32,840 nucleotides of DNA from a virus. Shown in pieces: positions 20,436 to 32,840 of this stretch (its first letter is position 1; each line of letters starts with the position of its first letter). Below the pieces are notes generated by a model that was not told where the DNA came from, searched no databases, and saw only the letters and a list, made by a program, of their open reading frames with translations. The DNA lies in the UHGV virus genome UHGV-0259093; one strand, given 5' to 3'. The position numbers were made by a program, and so were the translations under genes.

Positions 20436-20962
20436 TAACGCCCCCTATGAAATGTTGTAATAGATTTAATAGGGCTACCTGCGTTTAGTCCTTTCATATC
20501 TGAAATTAAATCGTTTGCCCTTTTAACATAGGTAGAACGTAGGCGTAGAAGTACTTCGCTTGATTCATAAGTTAGGGCTTTATTTTGTATTGATTGACTT
20601 AGTACACCACCACCTTTAATACGGTCTAGTGTAATTTGGTCAATATCTTTTATGATCTGAATTAGATCATTATATTCTGAGGCTTTACTAGTTGGATCAG
20701 TTACTTCAAATTGTTGTACACCGTATGCTTTAGGACTATCAATAATTGCAGTCCAGATACCCACGCCCCACGTATTAGTATCAATATCAGGGAATGGGTA
20801 AACATAGGAAGTTTTAACACCGTTAGGATCTATCAAATCGATATTAGTTCCTTCTGGATAGTTGAAAGTAATTGTTTCACCTTTGATAATATCGCCTTTT
20901 AAATCAACTTTGCGAACAATTGCCATTTGTTTTATTTCCTTATTTAAAGAATCCTCCACCAC
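20435..20962 (-). CDS. hypothetical head protein (occupies the gpW head-tail joining position between terminase and portal)
   Basis: 175-aa ORF; synteny only. Confidence 0.4.
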   Translation of the reverse strand: MVEDSLNKEIKQMAIVRKVDLKGDIIKGETITFNYPEGTNIDLIDPNGVKTSYVYPFPDIDTNTWGVGIWTAIIDSPKAYGVQQFEVTDPTSKASEYNDLIQIIKDIDQITLDRIKGGGVLSQSIQNKALTYESSEVLLRLRSTYVKRANDLISDMKGLNAGSPIKSITTFHRGR

Positions 20963-22868
20963 GTCTAGACGGACGTACTACACGACCTGTTTTTACTGGT
21001 GCTGGTTCTTCTTTATTTACTTCTTTATTTAGTCCTTTCTCTTTTTGTTTGGCGTTGAATTCGCGTAGTTTGCGGAATGGCTGATTACCTAATTTAGATA
21101 GATACCAGTGGAAACATATTAAAGCGTAGTTAAGACAATCAAGCGTTTCATTCCTTGCTGAACTAATTTTCTTAACCCATACCCACGCCCCAGCTTTAAT
21201 AACTCTCTTCTCACTTGATACCTGAATAAAGTAATCATCTGGTACTGAATGGCTGAAGTGTATTTGTACTTCACTACTATTACCACTATCCGATACTGCA
21301 CGGTTTAATAGTTGTCTAATATTACTTTTCCCTAAGTTTACGTTTAGGTTTATTAGACTATGACCACCAGCCGTAGAGCCTTTAAAGAGTGGGTTAGTAT
21401 TTGAAGTACCGCCCTTGATTGGTTTAAAGATTGTCGATGCACTACAATAGCGATATACCGTACTGGTTGCGTTACCGTTCGAACTATCTACAAAACCTGC
21501 AAGTACTTTAAGTGGTTTACCGGATACGGTTTTAAAGTTAGTTTGTGAAAATGCTGTTAGCTTATTCCATGCGGGAGCCTCTATTTTAGTACAGTCAATG
21601 CTATGAATACTGCGATGATCGAGTACATAAAGATTCTTTTCACTTATTCCTAACGTTGTTACTTCAAGGCGGTCTAACTGTTGGTCTACACCTAGTACGA
21701 TTCCTTGACAGTCATCCGGCACGGTATCTATATCTATTGAACTATCACGTAGGTTTTCAAGTAATACTAAATCATGATCGGTATTCTCTTTATCAATATA
21801 AGGAAGTCCTAAGACGTTATTGTAGAATGAGGCTAGATCAAATGTATAATGTGCTTCGGCAAAATCCTGTACTATTGATTTGATCGAGTTAATCGGGGAG
21901 TATAAACGGCTAATATGATACCCCATGATATCCGTTACTTCTGGTACTGTAGCTATCCATTCACCCTTACGTACCATTCTTACACGTTCGGCTTCTGTGA
22001 TTACATTATTACACTTAGGACATTGTAGTTTTGCTGTCTCTGCATCTGGAATGCGACGACGACCACCATCAATAATTTTCCAGTCGAATTTAACATTTTC
22101 AAATACTAATTCATGTGCATGATCACAATGTGGGCAAGGTACGTAGAACTTCTGTTTATTACTTTGCTCGTACTGCTGAGTGATTAAATCATTCTCATCA
22201 AGTGGTGTAGAACAAACCATAATAAGAGGGTTGCTAAAAGCCTTTGTACGCTGTTCTGCTAGCTTTAGTGGGTTCCCTTCATCACCATCTGCATCTACGT
22301 TAGATATTTCGTCAAGAAAGATACGGGGGGCTGTCAAGCCTCGCAAATTCGCACTACTACCCAATGTTAGGAAGTACGTAAAAGTACCGTCTAAGTTTTG
22401 TTGTGTCTTATCATTATTAGTATAGTTTTTATCATTCTTATTACTGACTAGATTTTTAAGTACTGCACATGCTTCGATTACTGATTGCCATTTACCAGTA
22501 CGAAACTTACTAGTAGTGCTGGCTGTTGCACCTGCGAAAATTAGATTGCTTGGATCATTTGCGAGGAAGTAGTACATACTATTCTGTAAAACTGTTGTTT
22601 TGAGAAGTTGTGCACTGCTCATCAAAACTATTTTTCTAATTCTTGGATTAGTAATGTCATTTATGGGCTTGTGCTGAAAGGAAAATAACTTTACGCGTTG
22701 TCCTTGTAGTTCCCCATCCGGGAATACTAAATTATTCTCTACCCATTCCGCTGGTAGTTGTCGCTTCGGAGGTAGGATCGACTTCGCCGCCCTCGTTAGT
22801 ACCTTCATCATCTTCTGGTAGTTGTTCATCCGTGTATGTTCCTTCATATTCATAGCTACCAATTTCAT
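20940..22868 (-). CDS. terminase large subunit, GpA family
   Basis: 642 aa. PCPHCDHAHELVF, GVDQQLDRLEVTTLG and ARNETLDCLNYALI parallel lambda gpA ACPHCGEEQYLKF, GIDSQLDRYEMRVWG and RRNEALDCFVYALA. Several in-frame Met near the N-terminus, so the true start may be later than 22868. Confidence 0.9.
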   Translation of the reverse strand: MKLVAMNMKEHTRMNNYQKMMKVLTRAAKSILPPKRQLPAEWVENNLVFPDGELQGQRVKLFSFQHKPINDITNPRIRKIVLMSSAQLLKTTVLQNSMYYFLANDPSNLIFAGATASTTSKFRTGKWQSVIEACAVLKNLVSNKNDKNYTNNDKTQQNLDGTFTYFLTLGSSANLRGLTAPRIFLDEISNVDADGDEGNPLKLAEQRTKAFSNPLIMVCSTPLDENDLITQQYEQSNKQKFYVPCPHCDHAHELVFENVKFDWKIIDGGRRRIPDAETAKLQCPKCNNVITEAERVRMVRKGEWIATVPEVTDIMGYHISRLYSPINSIKSIVQDFAEAHYTFDLASFYNNVLGLPYIDKENTDHDLVLLENLRDSSIDIDTVPDDCQGIVLGVDQQLDRLEVTTLGISEKNLYVLDHRSIHSIDCTKIEAPAWNKLTAFSQTNFKTVSGKPLKVLAGFVDSSNGNATSTVYRYCSASTIFKPIKGGTSNTNPLFKGSTAGGHSLINLNVNLGKSNIRQLLNRAVSDSGNSSEVQIHFSHSVPDDYFIQVSSEKRVIKAGAWVWVKKISSARNETLDCLNYALICFHWYLSKLGNQPFRKLREFNAKQKEKGLNKEVNKEEPAPVKTGRVVRPSRRGGGFFK

Positions 22869-23463
22869 TTAATTGATCATCTATTTTTTCCTGTAGTTTG
22901 ATTTTTAATTCTAATGCGTCTGCTGATTCGAATAATTCAACATAACTTGACGCGGGAATACTTCTTAATACTTGGCGTAGTTGGTAGAAGTATTGGGATA
23001 AAGTTTGCTGTACTACTGCTACTGGTATTAGCTCGCCGGATTGCTGACGTAATTCCATTTCTTTAATATCAGCTTCTGCTTCTAACTTACGTAGTGTTGC
23101 TTTTTGTATTTGGCCTTTTGTATCACCGCTTCTTAGTGGTTCGATTACGTTTGCAAGTAACCAATCGTCAACTAATTTCTTAGGCCAGGTGATATCTAAA
23201 CCTTTACCAGACCATATACGGCTAACAGTAGAATGCTCTACGCCGAAACGATCCGCGATTTCTTGCCACGTGTAGCGGGTTCCATCGTCTTTAATTTTTG
23301 CCATTTTGTTTAGTCCTTGTTTAGTACAATAAACCTGTACTTTCCTTTTATTTCGTTTTGTTTGTTTTCGATTAGAAATCCCACGAATTTTAAATACAAT
23401 TCGCGGCGAAAACTCGATTTTTTTGTTCTCAATTAGAGAACCTAAAGTTAAAACTTCACTCAC
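22732..23463 (-). CDS. terminase small subunit with HTH; likely true start at ATG 23304 (MAKIKDD...)
   Basis: YTWQEIADRFGVEHSTVSRIW helix-turn-helix, acidic C-terminus, directly upstream of the large terminase. The track start at 23463 is a GTG. aagga RBS precedes the internal ATG. Confidence 0.65.
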   Translation of the reverse strand: MSEVLTLGSLIENKKIEFSPRIVFKIRGISNRKQTKRNKRKVQVYCTKQGLNKMAKIKDDGTRYTWQEIADRFGVEHSTVSRIWSGKGLDITWPKKLVDDWLLANVIEPLRSGDTKGQIQKATLRKLEAEADIKEMELRQQSGELIPVAVVQQTLSQYFYQLRQVLRSIPASSYVELFESADALELKIKLQEKIDDQLNEIGSYEYEGTYTDEQLPEDDEGTNEGGEVDPTSEATTTSGMGRE

Positions 23464-23533
23464 GATTTTAATTTTTGATTTGTAATAATATTTATATTAT
23501 CATTGTATTATAAAGTAACAACAAGGACATGTA

Positions 23534-24472
23534 ATGAAACACATAATCCAAACCAGAAGTGTTTTTAAGGATATCGAAGACTCTTTATTTAGTGAGTTGC
23601 ATTCAGCTAAGACAAGTATCAAAATCTGTGTTGCATGGATAAACTTTGAGCTTTTTGAAAATATATTATTATCTAAGGCTAAAGAAGGTGTTGAAGTTGA
23701 GATATTAGTTAATAATGATTATATCAATACAAAATTTCTTGATAAAATATCTGATAATATAAAACCATTAATTAATCTAATTAAAAACCCTATTAGTAAC
23801 CACTTAATGCATCATAAATTTTGTATCATTGATGATGAAGTTTTGATTACTGGCAGTTATAATTGGTCAAAAAGAGCACCATATCATTATGAAAATATAA
23901 TAATCATCCGTAATGATTTCAATCTAATAATGCAATTTAAACATGAGTTTGCAGATTTAAAATACATGGGTGCAATGCCAAGTACAGAATTTAATGCATT
24001 TAAAGTAACCAAAAATCTCAATAGATTTGTTGTTGGCACATATAGTTCATCTGTGGGGATATATGAAACCGTCACATTGCAGTTATGGGAAATTGATATT
24101 AACAACTTAACTTTTGAACGACATGGCGAAATGGATATCCCTTTCTTCAATTATTTATTAGATATTAATACTGATGATCATTATCTTATTGATGAAAAAG
24201 AAAGGTACATCGATCTATATGATCAAGAGCGTAGACAGATGGAGACTATCCAAAGTCATTTTAGAAGATTAAATTGTTCAATTCATGCTTATGGAACAGC
24301 AATAATAGCGAACGAGAGCGAATACCTTGAAGGTTATGAAGAGCCTATTCGTGTAATTCACTTCAATTGGATAGATATGCGATTAAGCAAAGTATTACCC
24401 TCTTCTTTGCCCGCAACTATGGAACTTGAAGGATTATGGCACGAAATATATGCTCCAAATGGATATATTTAA
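23534..24472 (+). CDS. phospholipase D-family (single HKD motif, Nuc-like) nuclease with an uncharacterised ~160-aa C-terminal domain
   Basis: HHKFCIIDDEVLITGSYNWSKRA is a canonical HxK(x4)D(x6)GSxN motif. RBS aagga 6 nt before the ATG. Markedly AT-rich. Confidence 0.75.
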   Translation: MKHIIQTRSVFKDIEDSLFSELHSAKTSIKICVAWINFELFENILLSKAKEGVEVEILVNNDYINTKFLDKISDNIKPLINLIKNPISNHLMHHKFCIIDDEVLITGSYNWSKRAPYHYENIIIIRNDFNLIMQFKHEFADLKYMGAMPSTEFNAFKVTKNLNRFVVGTYSSSVGIYETVTLQLWEIDINNLTFERHGEMDIPFFNYLLDINTDDHYLIDEKERYIDLYDQERRQMETIQSHFRRLNCSIHAYGTAIIANESEYLEGYEEPIRVIHFNWIDMRLSKVLPSSLPATMELEGLWHEIYAPNGYI

Positions 24473-24489
24473 ATAATATTCTATAATTA

Positions 24490-24864
24490 ATGAGGAACGG
24501 TATTATGTCTAATTATCCTATACCACTTAGCCTTGAATTTAATAGTCAAGATACTGCTAATATCATTTGTAGTTATCTAGAAAAAAATCATCAAGATTCT
24601 ATTTTAAAAACCATATTAAATATAGATTTGTCTTTTATTGATTATCGTGCACAATCTTCTAATTACTTTATAATTAATGACGTTGAATATATTGGAGATA
24701 ATAATTATATTTTATATTATAAAATAAACTACTACATTTATAATCTCTGTAAAGATATGGATATTGATGATGACTACGAGACTTCGATAAATTTTACATT
24801 GAATAATGGATTTTTAGTATTTGATATAATTGATTGTGAAAGAAATATATCAGATGAAATATAG
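24490..24864 (+). CDS. small acidic protein, partner of the PLD nuclease; likely start at ATG 24505
   Basis: RBS gagga 8 nt upstream of the second ATG (MSNYPIPL...). Asp/Glu-rich (DMDIDDDYETS, DIIDCERNISDEI). 32-nt gap after the PLD gene. Confidence 0.55.
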   Translation: MRNGIMSNYPIPLSLEFNSQDTANIICSYLEKNHQDSILKTILNIDLSFIDYRAQSSNYFIINDVEYIGDNNYILYYKINYYIYNLCKDMDIDDDYETSINFTLNNGFLVFDIIDCERNISDEI

Positions 24865-24928
24865 CCATATTTAATTATCACTTAAGGATTTCAACATCAG
24901 GATTTAAATTTTAATTATATATAATAGT

Positions 24929-24960
24929 AAAAGCCTAATACTCATCAGTAATAGGCTTTT
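24929..24960. terminator. bidirectional terminator between convergent genes
   Basis: 9-bp stem aaaagccta (24929-24937) / taggctttt (24952-24960), 14-nt loop, with A and T runs forming part of the stem ends. Confidence 0.55.
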
Positions 24961-24967
24961 ACCTAAA

Positions 24968-25387
24968 TTATAATTGATTCAATCGATAGATATTAGATGT
25001 ACTTGAGCCATCGCTATACACCTCTGATATAGTCAGTTTGTTTCCATCCACTTTGTATTTTACTACACTATCAGCCGGATCATTTCTCCAACGACCTGAG
25101 CTATCTGGATTGTTTGATGCCCACATAACTTGATCATCAATCAGTTTGCACTTGATAGCCCATCTTGTGCTGTCATCTTTACGTATGTAATGGACATAGG
25201 CTACATCAGATTGAATCTTATCAAGCTTCATTATTTTATGATCTCGCCCAAACATAGATGCAGCCGCCGCTTTGCAGATCTGACCAACATTAGCTTCCGC
25301 TGCGTAGAGTGAAGAACTGAACAATAATGGCACAATCACTAATAACTTTATCATCGCATATCGTCTCGTAGTAAAAATTAATTTCAC
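24968..25387 (-). CDS. secreted or periplasmic protein of unknown function
   Basis: Signal-peptide-like N-terminus (MIKLLVIVPLLFSSSLYAAEA). Start 2 nt after the stop of the HNH endonuclease gene, implying co-transcription. Confidence 0.55.
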   Translation of the reverse strand: MKLIFTTRRYAMIKLLVIVPLLFSSSLYAAEANVGQICKAAAASMFGRDHKIMKLDKIQSDVAYVHYIRKDDSTRWAIKCKLIDDQVMWASNNPDSSGRWRNDPADSVVKYKVDGNKLTISEVYSDGSSTSNIYRLNQL

Positions 25388-25388
25388 C

Positions 25389-26114
25389 TTATTTCCTTAA
25401 TAACTTTTTTAATTCCTCAACTGTCTTCATTTCTTTTCCAATATGAATCATTGCATGACAGTTTGCACATAAAGGTATAAGATCTTCAATTGGGTCAATC
25501 TTATAGCGTTTACCAATAGTATGTAGTGGCACTATATGATGAACATGAATATAATTTTTTCCGTGACTTCCATACACTTCTTCAAAATTAAAACCACAGA
25601 CACCACAACTCAAACCATGTTTATCGATACATTCTTTTCTAGCCTTTGGATCTCTCTCATAGTACGTAGCAATCCTTTGATGCTTTTCACCTTCATAGTA
25701 TTCACTTTCTATTTCAGGTGTGAATGAATAGTAATCTTCATCGGTGGCATACCAATCTCCATCTTTTTTAGTAAGATATTTTCGTACTATTTTCTTTTCA
25801 AAATGTTTAATCCTAGCAGCACCATTTTCAGTTGTTTTCTCATGCCTAGTCTGGCTAAAGGTGAAAAGACTATACCCTTCATGTAAAATTTTATCTATGT
25901 GTTCGATAGATTGTGTATAACCATTTTTTTTGTGTCCATTTACATTTTCACGCCAACTGCTAGCCAAGATTAAAACTTTCTTACCATCATCTGATCTAAG
26001 ATCTTCCCAAGCTCCAAAAATTATTTTTTTGTTGATCTCATCAATAAATGACCAACTCCAGTTATCATTTTTACATGTAGCACCCAAAGAACGCATGAAC
26101 TCTGTTCGGGACAT
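25389..26114 (-). CDS. HNH-family endonuclease of restriction type (COG3183-like) with an uncharacterised N-terminal domain
   Basis: C-terminus ERDPKARKECIDKHGLSCGVCGF...IHVHHIVPL...DLIPLCANCHAMIH carries the Cys pair and His/Asn-type HNH motif of predicted HNH restriction endonucleases. Confidence 0.75.
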   Translation of the reverse strand: MSRTEFMRSLGATCKNDNWSWSFIDEINKKIIFGAWEDLRSDDGKKVLILASSWRENVNGHKKNGYTQSIEHIDKILHEGYSLFTFSQTRHEKTTENGAARIKHFEKKIVRKYLTKKDGDWYATDEDYYSFTPEIESEYYEGEKHQRIATYYERDPKARKECIDKHGLSCGVCGFNFEEVYGSHGKNYIHVHHIVPLHTIGKRYKIDPIEDLIPLCANCHAMIHIGKEMKTVEELKKLLRK

Positions 26115-26151
26115 TTTTCATCCTTAAAATATGTGACCTACATCACATGAA

Positions 26152-26232
26152 ACTATCGACTGTAGGAGGTTTCTATCCTTCGTAAAGCTAACAAACCTAC
26201 CCAAAGTAGATAGAAACCTCCTACAATCGATA
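26152..26232. repeat. 25-bp inverted repeat (24/25 match) with 31-bp spacer in a divergent intergenic region
   Basis: ctatcgactgtaggaggtttctatc (26152-26176) versus gatagaaacctcctacaatcgatag (26208-26232). Each arm contains aggagg. Confidence 0.6.
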
Positions 26233-26317
26233 GTGTATGTGTGTTCCTTTTGATGGTAAAGTATTAATATAGTGTTACCTAGACTGGGTGTACATATAAT
26301 CAATATTTGGGTTTGAT

Positions 26318-27028
26318 ATGCTTAATCTCACTAAATGTAATTTACTTTTGATCGGCACTGTAATAACTCTATTACTGATAGCTATTCTTGTAGGTATAAA
26401 AATACTATTCTCCGATTCTAATCCAGATCTAGGCAGCTTAGCAGATTGGATCAGTTCTGTATCCGCAATAGGGACTCTTGGTGTTGCCTGGTTAGCTTAT
26501 AGTAAAGCTGATGACTACATTGACAAAAAAGCTTCGGAAAGAGGAATTGATATCCTTGTCAATATGGTAACTGAATCATTCGTTGCTTATTTCAACTCAC
26601 TAAATGAAACTAATTTCCATGCTTCAAAACTTGAAAATAAAATGATATTGATTGGCTTGGTTGATGAAAAAGTAGATTGCAATATTGAACTACAATCATT
26701 AAGAGAAAAAATCATAACTCTCTTCGAAAATAGTCATCAAATAGACAAAGATTTTATAAAAATGAAAATAATGAAAATATCAAAACCCAGTGATATTTTC
26801 TACGATCCAGTAACTAGCGATGATACATTGCAAGCGTTAAAATTAGCATTTCATAAACTGAACACTGAAATTTGTGAGAATGAAAATCAATACAACATTA
26901 ATAATGATTTACTTAGCGAAAATATCAACTTTATTAAAAACACTACCGAAAAGTTAGCCCATGATATTCGCAAACAGTTCTTTACCTCGCCGAATACTTA
27001 TAAAGATTATTTTGGAAATCTGTCTTAA
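26318..27028 (+). CDS. two-TM membrane protein of unknown function, paralog B of the 549-1289 protein
   Basis: N-terminal helix LLLIGTVITLLLIAILVGI followed by DLGSLADWISSVSAIGTLGVAWLAY. Perfect TATAAT at 26294-26299 upstream. Confidence 0.7.
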   Translation: MLNLTKCNLLLIGTVITLLLIAILVGIKILFSDSNPDLGSLADWISSVSAIGTLGVAWLAYSKADDYIDKKASERGIDILVNMVTESFVAYFNSLNETNFHASKLENKMILIGLVDEKVDCNIELQSLREKIITLFENSHQIDKDFIKMKIMKISKPSDIFYDPVTSDDTLQALKLAFHKLNTEICENENQYNINNDLLSENINFIKNTTEKLAHDIRKQFFTSPNTYKDYFGNLS

Positions 27029-27073
27029 ATTATACGCTATCAAATATTCCATCAACATAAACAAGGAAAGTAG

Positions 27074-27772
27074 ATGACTACTCTCACTAGAACTTATAAT
27101 TTACCAAATGAGCTAGTTGAACATTTTTCAAATAACATTGTCTATTTCGAAAAACTTTTGTCTAAGGATTTTTCTGACTTAAATGTTAATGTAGCACCAG
27201 AAGACATTAAGAAAATAGAAAAATCTTTCGAAGTATCACATAGAATACGTGATTTCGAAATCAATCTGTATTGGCAAAGACTGAACTTCCTTTGGGCCAT
27301 TACAGCATTGCTATTTGCTGGATGGGGAACATTGATCTTTAAAATCATCGAATTCAATGGAGGGGAAGCACCTTATATTATATTTGCCGCCTTATCATTT
27401 CTCTCACTTATAGGTGGGATTGTAACTATATTCACAAGCTTTATCATTGAGGCAGGTAAGCATTGGCAAAAGGTTTGGGAGTTTCATGTTCACGCTCTTG
27501 AACCTTTTGTATCAGGTCATTTATATGCAATTCAGTTTTCTTATAAAAATAAAAAAAAGGCATCTATAAGTAGAAGCGTAGAAACTTTCAATTATGCTTT
27601 GCTGTTTCTTTGGGCATGTTCAGCAGTATTCGCCGCAATCATCCCTTCACAAATAGGGAACGGTCTTGCAGGCATTATCCAATTAGTTATTTCTCTTCTT
27701 ATAGTTGGTGCTTTTGTTTATATACGCAACTCTGTTACTAAAAAGGAGTCTATTAAAATTCAGCTTGATTAA
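27074..27772 (+). CDS. four-TM integral membrane protein of unknown function
   Basis: Hydrophobic segments FLWAITALLFAGWGTLIF, YIIFAALSFLSLIGGIVTIFTSFII, FNYALLFLWACSAVFAAII, GIIQLVISLLIVGAFVYI. Follows paralog B by 45 nt. Confidence 0.65.
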   Translation: MTTLTRTYNLPNELVEHFSNNIVYFEKLLSKDFSDLNVNVAPEDIKKIEKSFEVSHRIRDFEINLYWQRLNFLWAITALLFAGWGTLIFKIIEFNGGEAPYIIFAALSFLSLIGGIVTIFTSFIIEAGKHWQKVWEFHVHALEPFVSGHLYAIQFSYKNKKKASISRSVETFNYALLFLWACSAVFAAIIPSQIGNGLAGIIQLVISLLIVGAFVYIRNSVTKKESIKIQLD

Positions 27773-27792
27773 TGTAGCATAAGGCATCTACT

Positions 27793-28002
27793 TTAAGCAG
27801 CCCCATAATGGGGCTTTCTTTTTTTAGCATTTACTTTTTGAATGCTCATAAGAATCTCACGTACCTTTGCTTCATTATCACCTGCATCATATAGTACCCC
27901 ATCTTTCCAGTACTGACCCAGTAGTTCTACTTTTGGTAAGCCCGGCATTGCCCTTACTCCATCTTCGTGATCAATATGTAATTCAAGTGATCCAATAATC
28001 AT
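27793..28002 (-). CDS. small hypothetical protein
   Basis: 69-aa ORF overlapping the next gene by 4 nt. 3' end overlaps a plus-strand terminator hairpin, which lowers confidence. Confidence 0.35.
   Translation of the reverse strand: MIIGSLELHIDHEDGVRAMPGLPKVELLGQYWKDGVLYDAGDNEAKVREILMSIQKVNAKKRKPHYGAA
27799..27825 (+). terminator. rho-independent terminator after the membrane-protein pair
   Basis: Stem agcccca (27799-27805) / tggggct (27809-27815), 3-nt loop, then ttcttttttt. Confidence 0.6.
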
Positions 28003-28199
28003 TGCACGAAAGTTGTTAGGGTTAATTGAAAGTATTCTGCATCGTCTGGTTGTAGTTCAGCGTAATATTCTGGTGTGCTATCAAATGTAATTTCATTATT
28101 GATCATTACGCCCTGTGTATTTACTGCATATCTACGTTGTTTCATTCGGTCAAATAATAGTATTCCTTTCACGCGGTGATATGTTGTTAGTTCCCTCAT
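27999..28199 (-). CDS. small hypothetical protein
   Basis: 66-aa ORF in an overlapping three-gene string. Confidence 0.4.
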   Translation of the reverse strand: MRELTTYHRVKGILLFDRMKQRRYAVNTQGVMINNEITFDSTPEYYAELQPDDAEYFQLTLTTFVQ

Positions 28200-28525
28200 T
28201 TGGTTAGTCCTTGGTAGTAAGCCTTAGTAGCTCTGATATTGAATTCTTTGTTTAGGTGTGTATATGATGGCATATGCCCGTTATCCGTCATGTATCGCTC
28301 TATGTAGGCCGTAAGTAGTTCTAACTTGGTTGGGCTTACATCTGGTGTATCACTCAATAGAGAGCGTTTAGGGGCGTTATAGAGGCCATCACTTCGACCG
28401 CCTTGATTCTTGATATTGTGGCGTAGTGTATTCCACTTACCGGGCTTTTGTTTTGGCATAGTATTGTACTCCTGTACTGGTTGATTAATTGGGGCGGCGA
28501 CTCGTTCACACCTGCGGCGGTTCAC
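28196..28525 (-). CDS. small hypothetical basic protein; probable true start at ATG 28459 (MPKQKPGKW...)
   Basis: Track start is a GTG. The internal ATG has an aggag RBS about 10 nt upstream. Confidence 0.4.
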   Translation of the reverse strand: MNRRRCERVAAPINQPVQEYNTMPKQKPGKWNTLRHNIKNQGGRSDGLYNAPKRSLLSDTPDVSPTKLELLTAYIERYMTDNGHMPSYTHLNKEFNIRATKAYYQGLTK

Positions 28526-28764
28526 TGCGTGGCGACTTCAAGAGACTTTGAATAACTGACTTTCAGTAGTATCTCTTGAGTACTTACACCTACTGGAGTG
28601 AGCGAAAGCGAGAAAAGCACGCTTGCGGGTTTTCGATGCGATAGCGAGAAAAACGCAATGTGATACCCTTATGTGTTTTTTATAGGGATAATAGATAAGA
28701 CGCTTTAGCGGATTAGCTATTATCCCTCTGAATAATAGATATGGCGTATTTTATATCTGTTTTT

Positions 28765-28924
28765 CATCTTTCCATTAGAAAGTAGGATAATTATAATAGG
28801 TTGGAAAGATGCCATTTTGCCCCCCATTTTAACGGTAGAATGCGGGTTTCAGGGGTGTTGTTGGCCATATTTTCACACCATCTTTCCATCAAAGGGATTC
28901 CCACGCTAAACAGTTGGAAAGATG
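28765..28924. promoter_or_regulatory. two copies of an operator-like inverted-repeat pair in a ~400-bp non-coding region
   Basis: catctttccat at 28765-28775 and 28879-28889; ttggaaagatg at 28801-28811 and 28914-28924. Each pair is a 10/11 inverted repeat separated by 24-25 bp; the two pairs are ~114 bp apart. Confidence 0.5.
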
Positions 28925-28926
28925 AT

Positions 28927-29466
28927 TTATAGTGAATTTATGTATACCTTGATACTTCCTAAGCTAGTTCCATCCCTCATCATCTGGTGTACTTTCTTTT
29001 TTTCGTGCTGTGTTAGCTGTCGTGCATCACCCTTTAGTGCATACTTGATCATTACGCCGTGATTGTATGCCTCTAATAGTTCGTGTGCGGCCTTTACTGC
29101 AATGTTTCTATAATTATATAGCATTGACTTGTTTAGCGGCTTCTCGTTCCATTTCATGCGATTCTGGCGGCGAGTATTCACGGTATGTTGTACTTCCTCT
29201 ATTCCAATCATAGGACACTCTAAAACCAGCTTTAGGATCTCTAACCTACTAACCTTAGTACGGCTAGTGGTTCCTTCAAACTCTTTAGTAATGACTTCAT
29301 CAATAATATCTATTGCTTCTGGTGTAAACTGATTCAAAAACTTATAACCTGATAAAACGTTGTGTAAGTCTGTATTGTCGTATAATTTCTTTTTTCCTGC
29401 CATAATAAATACCTTTATAAAATGTGTTATGTTCCTTAATGGCGTTATGGTGTTTTCTCCCACCAT
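28927..29466 (-). CDS. hypothetical protein; probable start at ATG 29403 (MAGKKKLY...)
   Basis: aaagg RBS before the internal ATG. No motif recognised. Confidence 0.45.
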   Translation of the reverse strand: MVGENTITPLRNITHFIKVFIMAGKKKLYDNTDLHNVLSGYKFLNQFTPEAIDIIDEVITKEFEGTTSRTKVSRLEILKLVLECPMIGIEEVQHTVNTRRQNRMKWNEKPLNKSMLYNYRNIAVKAAHELLEAYNHGVMIKYALKGDARQLTQHEKKKVHQMMRDGTSLGSIKVYINSL

Positions 29467-29478
29467 AACGCCTTTTTA

Positions 29479-29964
29479 TTAGTTGTCTTTTGCAACCTTT
29501 GTATATGTCTGTCTATGTGTACTTCTATTGTACTTTTCATTCATGAATAGCGTGATATTGATACATGACATTCCACCAGTGTATAACGCCTTTACTTCAT
29601 CTTTTTGTACTGGTGTTAGACGTGGTTCATTTTGTTTCTTACGTACTGCCTTACATGAATTTTCACTATATGTAATCCACTGCAAATTAGAAATATTGTT
29701 GTCTCGTTTATCACTATTGATATTATCTACAACTAATCTTTTATTTGTTTGGGGTTTACTTAGAAATGTTTCTGCTACGAGTCTGTGTGTCTCTATCGGA
29801 TATGATTTAGATTTCCCATCCTCATAAACAGTTAAAGTAACTTTATAGTACCCATTACTTTTACTATAACTCTGTGTTAGATAATTACCCGTTTTAGTAT
29901 TGCGTACTTCTCCGTTACTACTTACTTCATAATTTACATATTGTGTTTGTTTCCATAATGTCAT
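29479..29964 (-). CDS. HNH homing endonuclease (NUMOD4-like N-terminus plus HNH_3 motif)
   Basis: YEVSSNGEVRNTKTGNYL and HRLVAETFLSKPQTNKRLVVDNINSDKRDNNISNLQWITYSEN are the hallmark motifs of phage-encoded HNH homing endonucleases. Confidence 0.8.
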   Translation of the reverse strand: MTLWKQTQYVNYEVSSNGEVRNTKTGNYLTQSYSKSNGYYKVTLTVYEDGKSKSYPIETHRLVAETFLSKPQTNKRLVVDNINSDKRDNNISNLQWITYSENSCKAVRKKQNEPRLTPVQKDEVKALYTGGMSCINITLFMNEKYNRSTHRQTYTKVAKDN

Positions 29965-30042
29965 TTTCTCTTCCTTGGACTATGGGGTACTGTGCAATCC
30001 TTGCAAGTACATGAGTAATACTTTTTACGATAGTATCAAACG

Positions 30043-30264
30043 TTATTGATTTTCGATTAGTAGTTTGAAAGTTGGAAAATTCATCCTTTCAAATAGTTCT
30101 GTATGTAGTTTACGTGTTGTGTGGTAATACTTCATATCTTTATAGAAATCAGAATGGATTACCGTATTACAGTACGTTTTACCATTTGGTTTAGATACAT
30201 CTGCAATTAGTACATTGTCGGTATCGGTACGTACATTGTTAAAATGGAATTCGCCAAAGTTCAT
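30043..30264 (-). CDS. small hypothetical protein, translationally coupled to the upstream RHH-like gene (toxin candidate)
   Basis: 73-aa ORF whose ATG overlaps the stop of the RHH-like ORF (TAATG arrangement). No motif recognised. Confidence 0.45.
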   Translation of the reverse strand: MNFGEFHFNNVRTDTDNVLIADVSKPNGKTYCNTVIHSDFYKDMKYYHTTRKLHTELFERMNFPTFKLLIENQ

Positions 30265-30419
30265 TACTTCTTTCCTCCTAAGATTACTTGTTGATTGAGT
30301 AGATATTGTAAAGCGGTACTCATTGATTTTGCTTTCCCTTCATCAATGATACTTTGTAGTACATTGTGTTGATGTTCGTTTAGACGTGCTGATACTTTGT
30401 ATTCTTTATTTTCTTTCAT
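30264..30419 (-). CDS. ribbon-helix-helix (CopG/Arc-like) small DNA-binding protein, 51 aa, below the ORF-track cutoff
   Basis: My translation MKENKEYKVSARLNEHQHNVLQSIIDEGKAKSMSTALQYLLNQQVILGGKK. Short beta-strand (KVSARL) followed by two helices fits the RHH layout. Confidence 0.45.
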   Translation of the reverse strand: MKENKEYKVSARLNEHQHNVLQSIIDEGKAKSMSTALQYLLNQQVILGGKK

Positions 30420-30467
30420 TGATTTTCCTTTTGTCTGCAAATCCTTAAAAATTTCATGTAAAAATCA

Positions 30468-30485
30468 CCCCGTAGGGATACGGGG
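30468..30485 (-). terminator. hairpin terminator for minus-strand transcription entering from the right
   Basis: Stem ccccgta / tacgggg with ggga loop; T-run follows on the minus strand. Confidence 0.4.
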
Positions 30486-30828
30486 TAATAACAAAATCTA
30501 AGGAGGAGGGATTTTAATATTCACACTTATTTATGAGATGAGAGCGGTCGCCCCCTTCATATACTATTATTATATCACATTTTGCCCATTTCGTCCCAGA
30601 AATCGACAAAATCAATTTTAAGTGGCTGATTTATATGTATTTATTACAGAAGTCGCGATTATCGCCATAATGCATAAGAAGAGATATACTAAAAATGCAA
30701 TGTATAGATAAACTATCCACCCGGTGATCATAAACACCATACCTACCACTAATACAAAAGCACTGACTAACCAATCTAACATAGTTTCCCCTTATAATTA
30801 TTATGTACAATTATTTATCAATAAGACG

Positions 30829-30867
30829 AAAAAAAGCCCCGTAATGCGACATCAATCGATACGGGGC
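30829..30867 (-). terminator. rho-independent terminator downstream of the serine recombinase gene
   Basis: Stem gccccgta (30836-30843) / tacggggc (30860-30867), followed on the minus strand by seven T (plus 30829-30835 aaaaaaa), ~75 nt after the recombinase stop. Confidence 0.5.
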
Positions 30868-30941
30868 ATAACAACTACTACTATATTATTTTTTGTTTAC
30901 GGTATTTCTAATCTACTTTCTAGGCCAAAATAAATGCCCGT

Positions 30942-32840
30942 CTAGATCTGGTCTATCCGATAACGCTCTATGAACTCTTTACGTGTTAAACCAGTCGATT
31001 CTAATGCAGTGGCTATATCCTTTGGAACTCGACCATTCAAGGCAATACTATATGTATTGCCTTCATACACAATGTCTACTCGATCATACTTTCCGGTATT
31101 AGGCCAGAATGAAGCCCCACTTATTTCACTATAACCAACCACTTCTAACATCTCATTAGCAGTATTGAACAGATCTAAATAACTTTGTTCAATTTTATCA
31201 AGTTGTTCCACTGCTTTATTAAATAATGGCAGATTGCTAGTGGTAAGAAATCCTTCATCTCTGATACTTACATTATCAACAGAAGAAAATTCAACTTTAA
31301 ACGCCCAATGTGGTTTTCTATCAGTTCCACCAAAAACTAACCATTCATCTTTAAAATGATACTTTATTTTTATCGTTATACACCCATCAGTTTTATCAAC
31401 TATAACACTTTCAATAATAGAACTAATTACTTTCCTTATTTTATTTCTATCCGTATCCTGCATATTTGTAAAAACCGCCCACTGAATAAGAATCATAAAT
31501 TCATTTATATCGACTTCTAGAGATCCTTTACCTTTCAGTGAATATAAGCGTTCTTTTAACTTATCAACTTCCAGAACAGTCTTTTTACGTTCCATATCAA
31601 ACGCATTTAGTTGAACTGCTAACGCACTAACATTAGGAGCAATTGCTATTGCTTGAGCCATGTTTGTTATGCGAGATTCCAGATCAGTTATCAACGTTTC
31701 TTTTCTACTGAGGTCTTCTTCTATCACAGTTGTGTCAATACCATCTTTTAGTCTCTTATTCATGTAACCGATCAGTAGTGAAATGATCGTACAGTGTTCA
31801 ACTAATTGTGCTGATATAGACCAGCCAGAACAGTTTTTTTGTAAGTGAACCCCATTAGTACAAATATAGCGAGCACTGCCATGATTCATGAAAGAATGCA
31901 TAGTTCCTCCACACTTGCTACACCGTAACACCTGCAACCCTGATAACAATTTAATTTCTTCTACTTTGTCTTTCTTAGCCTTGAAGTTGTTTTGCTGCTT
32001 ACGTTCAGCCAAGGTTAAATACTCTGCTTCATCTTTGCATAACCATGGATAGTAGTTATCAAGTTTGTAAGTAGCACCACCAGCATTGATAGTCCTTTCA
32101 CCAATCAACGCCCGATTATCACGCATCTTTTTCAATACCTGATAATCCCATTCTTTACCCTTTAAACCATTAGGATATTTTTTATCGAGATGACGCTTTA
32201 CTGTATAGATGCCATTCCCATCTAAAAACATGTCTATAGCTTCGCGAGCGATACTCCAGTAAACGGGATGTTCTTTTACTGCTTCATATTGCGAACCTGA
32301 ATCATCTATCCAAAATGGATGGCGACCAACTGACTTAATGTTTACTGGCAACCCTGCTTTATGACGTTCGACCAAGGCAACAACATTGCCTATGGTCCTG
32401 TTAGATTTCGTTTCTGATTCTTCATTGCCACGGATAAACATCAGAATAGAAATCATCAGATCAGTAGGGTTTTGTCTGATGGATTCTCTGTTATAGACCT
32501 TCCGATCCATTCCTGTGACAATCGTTAGCCCTAAACCAATCAATTCAAGGAATAAACGAAGTGCTTCATCCACCTGATCGCGTGATAGTCGGTCGAGGTT
32601 TTCACAGTAAAGCCAAGAGTCAGACGGTATAGCATTATTTTTTACGGCGTCTATGAAGTCACCCAACTTACCCGCCCTATTTTTTCCCCTGTAAGCACTC
32701 GTGCCAGGTTCCAAAATTTCAACCATTTCAAGCCCCGCTTCTTCAGCATAGGCTTTCGCTGCCGCTACCTGCCTGTTCTTGGTTGTTCCTTTTTCTTGGC
32801 GATCACTTGACCACCTGATATAGCTATAAAGTTGCGGCAT
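30942..32840 (-). CDS. large serine recombinase (phage integrase type)
   Basis: N-terminal YIRWSSDRQ with catalytic Ser and LDRLSRD typical of the resolvase domain. 632 aa, Cys-rich zinc-ribbon-like segment (CSKCGG...CTNG). ATG is the last three bases of the window. Confidence 0.9.
   Translation of the reverse strand: MPQLYSYIRWSSDRQEKGTTKNRQVAAAKAYAEEAGLEMVEILEPGTSAYRGKNRAGKLGDFIDAVKNNAIPSDSWLYCENLDRLSRDQVDEALRLFLELIGLGLTIVTGMDRKVYNRESIRQNPTDLMISILMFIRGNEESETKSNRTIGNVVALVERHKAGLPVNIKSVGRHPFWIDDSGSQYEAVKEHPVYWSIAREAIDMFLDGNGIYTVKRHLDKKYPNGLKGKEWDYQVLKKMRDNRALIGERTINAGGATYKLDNYYPWLCKDEAEYLTLAERKQQNNFKAKKDKVEEIKLLSGLQVLRCSKCGGTMHSFMNHGSARYICTNGVHLQKNCSGWSISAQLVEHCTIISLLIGYMNKRLKDGIDTTVIEEDLSRKETLITDLESRITNMAQAIAIAPNVSALAVQLNAFDMERKKTVLEVDKLKERLYSLKGKGSLEVDINEFMILIQWAVFTNMQDTDRNKIRKVISSIIESVIVDKTDGCITIKIKYHFKDEWLVFGGTDRKPHWAFKVEFSSVDNVSIRDEGFLTTSNLPLFNKAVEQLDKIEQSYLDLFNTANEMLEVVGYSEISGASFWPNTGKYDRVDIVYEGNTYSIALNGRVPKDIATALESTGLTRKEFIERYRIDQI

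Follow-up and report, generated by a model that had tools for sequence, protein, structure and literature searches.

The 312-residue phospholipase D (PLD)-family protein encoded by this prophage is, on the explanation that we favour with moderate confidence, a stand-alone prophage-borne nuclease with a novel acidic control domain, acting in defence or exclusion. With the same moderate confidence we read the small acidic gene that follows it as no obligate partner of the PLD gene; judged from the company that its homologs keep, it would be an accessory gene that moves independently, goes with the 2-TM and 8xMP genes at 26318–27772 and abuts the PLD gene in the lineage of the window (the whole stretch of 32,840 nucleotides that was analysed). 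A preliminary description of this DNA had presented the two genes as a two-gene cassette carried as accessory cargo. Of that reading, the nuclease and the accessory cargo have found support; the pairing of the two genes has not, because across homologs they do not consistently co-occur.

Both open reading frames lie on the plus strand where they had been described, the PLD-family gene at 23534–24472 and the small gene, encoding a protein of 119 aa, at 24505–24864, with a gap of 32 nt and no terminator between them. The PLD product has neither a signal peptide nor a TM segment, and its ATG at 23534 is preceded at 7 nt by AGGA, the ribosome-binding site that had been attributed to it. An in-frame ATG at 24490 would extend the small protein to 124 aa; the start was taken at 24505 because the spacing of GAGGA (24492–24496, plus strand, 8 nt before the ATG) fits the latter codon. 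The strongly acidic character reported for the small protein is borne out by its pI of 4.05 and net charge of −14. As had also been noted, the pair is AT-rich: GC content is 30% in the PLD gene and 22% in the small gene, as compared with 36.8% in the window and 38% in the structural module. Comparison with the copies in a second locus, L103 (79% and 77% identical, respectively), gave dN/dS values of 0.21 for the PLD gene and 0.18 for the small gene, indicating that both are real coding genes under purifying selection.

The pair is divergent from terS (22732–23463, minus strand) and terL, a GpA terminase by Pfam, and lies in an accessory region of ∼9 kb whose far end is occupied by a large serine recombinase (30942–32840, minus strand), in agreement with the position between packaging genes and recombinase first given for it. 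The divergent spacer between terS and the PLD gene contains a candidate sigma-70 promoter, TTGATT-17-TATCAT (23475–23503, plus strand, 9 of 12 matches); we regard it as a candidate only, since such matches are not above chance in AT-rich DNA, 16 promoter-like sites having been found as against 14.6 expected from shuffled sequence. Downstream, a stem-loop between convergent genes (24927–24962; 15-bp stem, z = −3.9, with none of 200 shuffles folding as well) is probably a bidirectional terminator, closing the PLD/small-gene unit against the convergent gene at 24968–25387. Rfam and tRNA scans of the whole window found nothing. At the DNA level, positions 23000–25400 had no match among GenBank phages, and 23400–24960 had none at megablast level among RefSeq complete E. 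coli genomes. The prophage as a whole (window 1–32840) has 36.8% GC, yet is resident in genomes of E. coli, Citrobacter and Klebsiella, which have ∼50% GC or higher.

The first 147 residues of the PLD protein (23534–23974, plus strand) form a Nuc/NucT-like nuclease domain. One HxK(x4)D(x6)GSxN catalytic motif, HHKFCIIDDEVLITGSYNWSKRA, was read from the sequence at 23810–23863 (plus strand; H93 to N110), and its residues H93, K95, D100, G107, S108 and N110 are invariant across 37 aligned homologs. Pfam PLDc_2 (PF13091) matches residues 19–141 with E = 5e-20 (72 bits against a cutoff of 27), confirming the single HKD motif that had been placed in the N-terminal ∼140 residues. The protein thus has the catalytic motif of the PLD superfamily together with its alpha/beta sandwich fold, and the nearest folds to the domain are Nuc and NucT. 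The top NCBIfam models are likewise NucT nucleases (∼3e-9), at 36–37 bits as against equivalog cutoffs of 211–351, which are not reached. The N-terminus, MKHIIQTRSVFKDIEDS, carries no hydrophobic signal sequence. This absence, together with the Nuc/NucT-like profile and fold, argues that the domain is cytoplasmic and of nuclease type rather than a lipid synthase.

Searches for a family that covers the whole protein gave little. In PHROGs it falls in a family annotated as of unknown function, our literature search found no paper describing the family, and PADLOC 2.0 has no model that covers it, the matches being weak and at the level of the PLD domain (MkoC, 1.9e-8; DpdK, 1.4e-6; DrmC, 8.5e-6). 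The earlier failure to recognise a named defence system here is in keeping with these results.

The remaining ∼165 residues (148–312; 23975–24469, plus strand) form a domain that is exclusive to this family. A Pfam scan of 26 family members returned no recurring family within it, as expected from the first reading of a C-terminal part of ∼160 residues without assignment, and a profile of the domain had no match among PDB sequences. When the same profile was run against 1.84 billion cluster representatives, 61 proteins only were returned, essentially all of them of ∼300–325 aa with the domain at ∼150–310, or fragments; the domain is therefore confined to a rare PLD family. Its predicted elements are three strands and a helix, after which strand and helix alternate twice. 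Acidity is a family-wide trait of the domain (net charge −9 on average, pI 5.3), and the residues conserved in at least 90% of members are structural only (G175, W185, A252, G254, W279 and P289), the family alignment containing no invariant polar residue and no enzymatic signature. Because the domain is non-catalytic, acidic and unlike the DNA readers of BfiI and the END nucleases, we regard it as a probable regulatory, protein-binding or autoinhibitory part.

Two other identities were considered for this domain. A mobile sensor module common to other effectors was rejected, since the domain is found in the PLD family only, and a BfiI-like architecture with a B3-type DNA-binding C-terminal domain was rejected because the alignment was limited to the N-terminal domain. 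BFVD gave matches to the PLD domain only, plus weak, partial and unsubstantiated matches to viral Holliday-junction resolvases. In most of the distant PLD members, a Cys/Cys…Cys/His set occurs at the start of the C-terminal domain (alignment columns ∼165–225), which is probably a structural zinc site; in the window protein and the enteric prophage clade all four positions are replaced (window residues ∼155–195).

The PLD gene is kept beside terS/terL in at least five prophage lineages, in which TerL is 43–49% identical, and across related prophages PLD identity tracks TerL identity. Decayed prophages keep it too. In E. coli L008 (CP126295.1), terL is truncated and the structural genes are gone, while the full accessory island, PLD gene included, is kept; in Klebsiella michiganensis (L001), a remnant holds a 54%-identical PLD gene, an IS and part of a resolvase, which shares 94% identity with the window recombinase. 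Both of these loci adjoin GSDH and YliH (PF10799) genes, and the Klebsiella remnant has, in addition, a flanking radical-SAM/TRAM gene with RimO-like domains. No full-length copy was found among sequenced GenBank phages.

Full-length homologs are not confined to prophages: chromosomal defence islands carry them, and so does a megaplasmid. In five of nine distinct non-prophage chromosomal contexts, a known or candidate defence gene is found at a distance of about two predicted genes or less from the PLD gene; this is a handful of loci and not a statistical enrichment test. The neighbours are PifA (6e-96), PDC-S54 (6e-132, in L016), a SIR2 PDC-S25 candidate (in L003), type I R-M M and S subunits with a NERD protein, and a UvrD/GajB-like helicase. 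The PLD family is mobile and patchily distributed.

In the explanation that we favour, the PLD gene would be a stand-alone accessory gene of a temperate phage, with a cytoplasmic, single-HKD product of the Nuc/NucT/Zucchini type. The protein would homodimerise, as all single-HKD enzymes must, to form one active site, and the dimer would cut phosphodiester bonds through a covalent phospho-histidine intermediate without need of metal. The prophage would express it from its own promoter, on the strand opposite the late operon, and it would act as a single-gene defence or superinfection-exclusion nuclease whose C-terminal domain may hold the nuclease inactive, or select its target, until an infection cue is received. 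A host-protective role is favoured by the opposite strand, lower GC and own ribosome-binding site and terminator of the gene, by its retention in the two decayed prophages, by the proximity of defence genes in five of the nine non-prophage contexts and by the precedent of the END nucleases (PMC12191111). The defence reading is weakened by the stability of the gene beside the terminase and by the way in which its identity tracks that of TerL, which is unusual for defence cargo and suggests that the phage may need the protein. Target recognition is also left unexplained by a defence role, given that the acidic C-terminal domain does not resemble the domains with which BfiI and the END nucleases read DNA.

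That same stability is the main argument for a role in the phage life cycle, in host nucleic-acid degradation, in the processing of DNA for replication or packaging, or in counter-defence. A gene held beside terS/terL in at least five lineages, with an identity that follows TerL, behaves as a stable lineage gene rather than as swappable cargo. Nevertheless, it is on the strand opposite all flanking phage genes and has a lower GC content; decayed prophages that have lost or truncated their structural genes keep it; and full-length homologs occur in defence islands and on a megaplasmid while sequenced GenBank phages have yielded none. On balance we consider a life-cycle role unlikely.

Somewhat less likely again is that the protein is a restriction endonuclease on the model of BfiI, NgoAVII, SauUSI or the END nucleases, either modification-dependent (type IV-like) or sequence-specific, whose C-terminal domain would read DNA. 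The protein is built like the members of that class, which has been described as modular (PMC12191111), with the PLD nuclease at the N-terminus and a C-terminal domain of comparable size after it; a McrA-like HNH gene lies 0.5 kb away, and there is no methyltransferase nearby, as expected for a type IV enzyme. The window protein shares with BfiI, NgoAVII and END an N-terminal single-HKD PLD nuclease domain; none of the DNA-recognition domains that stand at the C-terminus in that class (B3-like pseudobarrel, inactive EndoIII, EVE or winged helix) was found in it.

The remaining reading of substance is that the PLD and the 119-aa protein make up a two-component unit, either a toxin–immunity pair, in which the small protein would be an acidic DNA-mimic inhibitor, or an effector–sensor pair. 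Tight operon linkage is present (32 nt, same strand, common terminator hairpin), in the window lineage only, and the gap and the lack of a terminator within it make co-transcription probable there. The two genes occur together in the window's prophage lineage in E. coli, Citrobacter and metagenomes (L005–L009, L014 and L109) and in L103, where both are under purifying selection at 79% and 77% identity. The acidity of the small protein, pI 4.05, would suit an inhibitor, and the part of it that is most conserved is modelled poorly, as would be the case for a motif that folds on a partner.

The distribution of the two genes argues against such a unit, and the claim of a toxin–immunity or sensor–effector cassette fails on co-occurrence. 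The small gene adjoins the PLD gene only within a lineage in which PLD identity is at least 79%. Some 14 independent PLD contexts have no small-gene homolog: a Klebsiella prophage remnant (L001), Pseudomonas (L003/4, L018, L019 and L021), Photobacterium (L015), Marinomonas (L016), Campylobacterales (L017), Achromobacter (L020), Azospirillum (L023), an Aliarcobacter megaplasmid (L108), an IMG/VR contig whose PLD resembles Acinetobacter homologs (L113) and four related prophage lineages (L095/L111, in Pectobacterium; L098/L110; L096; and L112). The last four are the most telling and weigh most against pairing, for in each the PLD gene occupies the same accessory region, next to terS and in the orientation opposite to that of the terminase genes; L095/L111 and L112 have it immediately divergent from terS. 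Conversely, there are four independent contexts in which the small gene is present without a PLD gene, in Enterobacter (L010–13 and L105–107), in Proteus (L100) and on metagenomic contigs (L101/102).

A naturally disrupted copy points the same way. In Citrobacter freundii (L014), a degenerate IS-like insert of ∼1 kb parts codons 1–27 of the small gene from the remainder, and the PLD gene beside it is intact and 96% identical, which argues against a neutralising partner. The insert itself (L014:5025–6016) is GC-rich, with short broken ORFs and transposase-like remnants, and the annotated 124-aa product begins inside it. Carriage of the PLD gene is therefore not dependent on the small protein. 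No other gene takes the place of a conserved partner in an all-against-all comparison of neighbours at 10 loci; the ORFs of ∼420–440 aa upstream of the PLD gene are not one family, that of L003 being SIR2, that of L016 PDC-S54 and those of L018 and L021 being without an assigned family. A two-component unit is thus improbable for the family as a whole, although the probable co-transcription leaves room for a functional link between the two proteins that is specific to the window lineage.

Least probable of all, to the point of being negligible, is a housekeeping or lipid-directed enzyme (cardiolipin or phosphatidylserine synthase, or phospholipase), the identity that a profile match could have established: the NCBIfam cardiolipin synthase matches that favour it are weak (E = 4e-3, with a score of 16 bits where the cutoffs are 290 and 787), and it was rejected because the protein has one HKD motif and not two, its C-terminal domain gave no alignment to a second PLD domain, TM helices are absent and the nearest folds are Nuc and NucT, in a gene that is mobile and patchily distributed.

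Homologs of the small protein form a tiny family, restricted to Enterobacterales, and tblastn against GenBank phages gave no match. The stretch YYIYNLCKDMDI (residues 76–87; 24730–24765) is invariant within the family and has the lowest AF2 confidence in the protein, with pLDDT ∼44; on this model it may be a motif that becomes ordered only on a binding partner. Where the small gene occurs without a PLD gene, it keeps other company. In Enterobacter L105–107 a CI-type repressor gene lies directly upstream of an operon that consists of the small protein, then after 10 nt a 251-aa 2-TM protein, DUF2971 and 8xMP. A 2-TM protein follows the small-gene homolog after 9 nt in L102 and is encoded by the second gene downstream of it in L010. 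Both kinds of neighbour are present in the window. A 236-aa 2-TM protein (26318–27028, plus strand) matches those of L105, L102 and L010 by phmmer at 3e-11, 5e-11 and 8e-5, respectively, and an 8xMP membrane protein (PF24838; 27074–27772, plus strand; Pfam E = 1.3e-16) shares 49% identity with the product of the gene that ends the L105 operon. The stretch in which 2-TM and 8xMP genes come after the small-gene homolog in Enterobacter is L105:5001–7938. The array of small protein, 2-TM, DUF2971 and 8xMP may constitute a membrane module of prophages that is as yet undescribed; the 2-TM/8xMP module had no match in PADLOC, and a literature search on 8xMP found nothing relevant.

A bolder version of the favoured explanation, which we put forward tentatively and as a whole, is that this DNA holds two undescribed entities. 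The first would be a single-gene anti-phage family of ∼310 aa, Nuc-like PLD plus acidic domain, carried over the long term by enterobacterial temperate phages and scattered in defence islands of Pseudomonas, Vibrio, Acinetobacter and others, in which the acidic domain, as autoinhibitor or infection sensor, would license a nuclease that is otherwise non-specific. The second would be a separate prophage module, led by the 119-aa protein (small protein, 2-TM, 8xMP) and transcribed next to a CI repressor gene.

In the window, two minus-strand genes separate the small gene from the 2-TM/8xMP genes. The first (24968–25387) encodes a secreted protein of 139 aa with an N-terminal signal-like hydrophobic stretch and no family match; its positional counterpart in Pectobacterium L095, convergent there on the PLD gene, encodes a 138-aa LprI-domain protein. 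The second (25389–26114) encodes an HNH protein of 241 aa, of which the C-terminal ∼90 residues match E. coli McrA (PDB 6ghc, 4.4e-8). The same C-terminal part also matches the PADLOC type IV methyl-directed REase model (1.6e-9), the N-terminal ∼140 aa being without a match; the protein could be a restriction enzyme of type IV or, alternatively, one of the packaging-associated HNH proteins. The 2-TM family is also found 3' of PLD genes that lack the small gene (L096 and L095), so that the region as a whole behaves like a mosaic in which each accessory gene is optional. Another gene shuffled within this array belongs to a family of 136–143 aa (33% identity, 2e-19), found directly after the small-gene homolog in one Enterobacter prophage (L010:6371–6802) and directly before the PLD homolog in another prophage (L096:5534–5944). 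In the early region there is also a NUMOD4/HNH_3 homing-endonuclease-like ORF of 161 aa (29479–29964, minus strand; PADLOC HEase, 7e-18).

Exchange of the island is apparent from comparison of positions 20940–27772 with L103, in which the secreted protein is 89%, the HNH protein 95% and 8xMP 88% identical, besides the PLD and small proteins, as compared with 46% for TerL and 30% for TerS. On these identities the accessory island has moved between diverged phages as a block, having been exchanged relative to the packaging module.

Should the PLD protein indeed protect lysogens, it would be a compact 0.9-kb, single-gene, metal-independent nuclease system with a control domain that has no known relatives, and through the acidic domain one could study in a new way what prevents a non-specific nuclease from doing harm in the cytoplasm. 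Its unusually stable carriage by one phage lineage bears on whether it serves the phage or the host. There is also a lesson for genome scans: adjacency and a suggestive charge do not make a toxin–immunity pair, and here it was comparative context that parted the two genes and pointed the small one towards a membrane-protein module.

Among known proteins, the N-terminal domain resembles Nuc (pKM101/Salmonella, PDB 1bys) and NucT (Helicobacter pylori, PDB 6ehi), which are single-HKD PLD nucleases. These are secreted or periplasmic proteins of ∼150–180 aa with a signal peptide and no extra domain, whereas the window protein has 312 aa, no signal peptide and an additional acidic C-terminal domain of 165 aa. 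The likeness to Mokosh MkoC, DISARM DrmC and Dpd DpdK covers the PLD domain only. The partner genes of Mokosh, DISARM and Dpd were sought with PADLOC at 24968–27772 and in three ORFs of the interval 28196–29964, without a match, and the ten proteins from 20940 to 32840 that were scanned with Pfam include neither a helicase nor a methylase. [quoted passage not shown] The END nucleases, of which END-PaCF1 is one, are single-gene anti-phage PLD endonucleases of a modular class with variable C-terminal domains, and they occur in defence islands, where they are missed by both PADLOC and DefenseFinder (PMC12191111). Their N-terminal domain is BfiI-like and is followed at the C-terminus by an EndoIII/OGG fold, all-helical and inactivated, with which they read hypermodified DNA (PMC12191111); the window protein, in contrast, combines a Nuc-like N-terminal domain with an acidic alpha/beta C-terminal domain without detectable relatives. 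The 312-residue protein would thus join the theme of a PLD nuclease with a variable C-terminal domain, as seen in BfiI, SauUSI and the END nucleases, and would bring to it a previously undescribed acidic domain.
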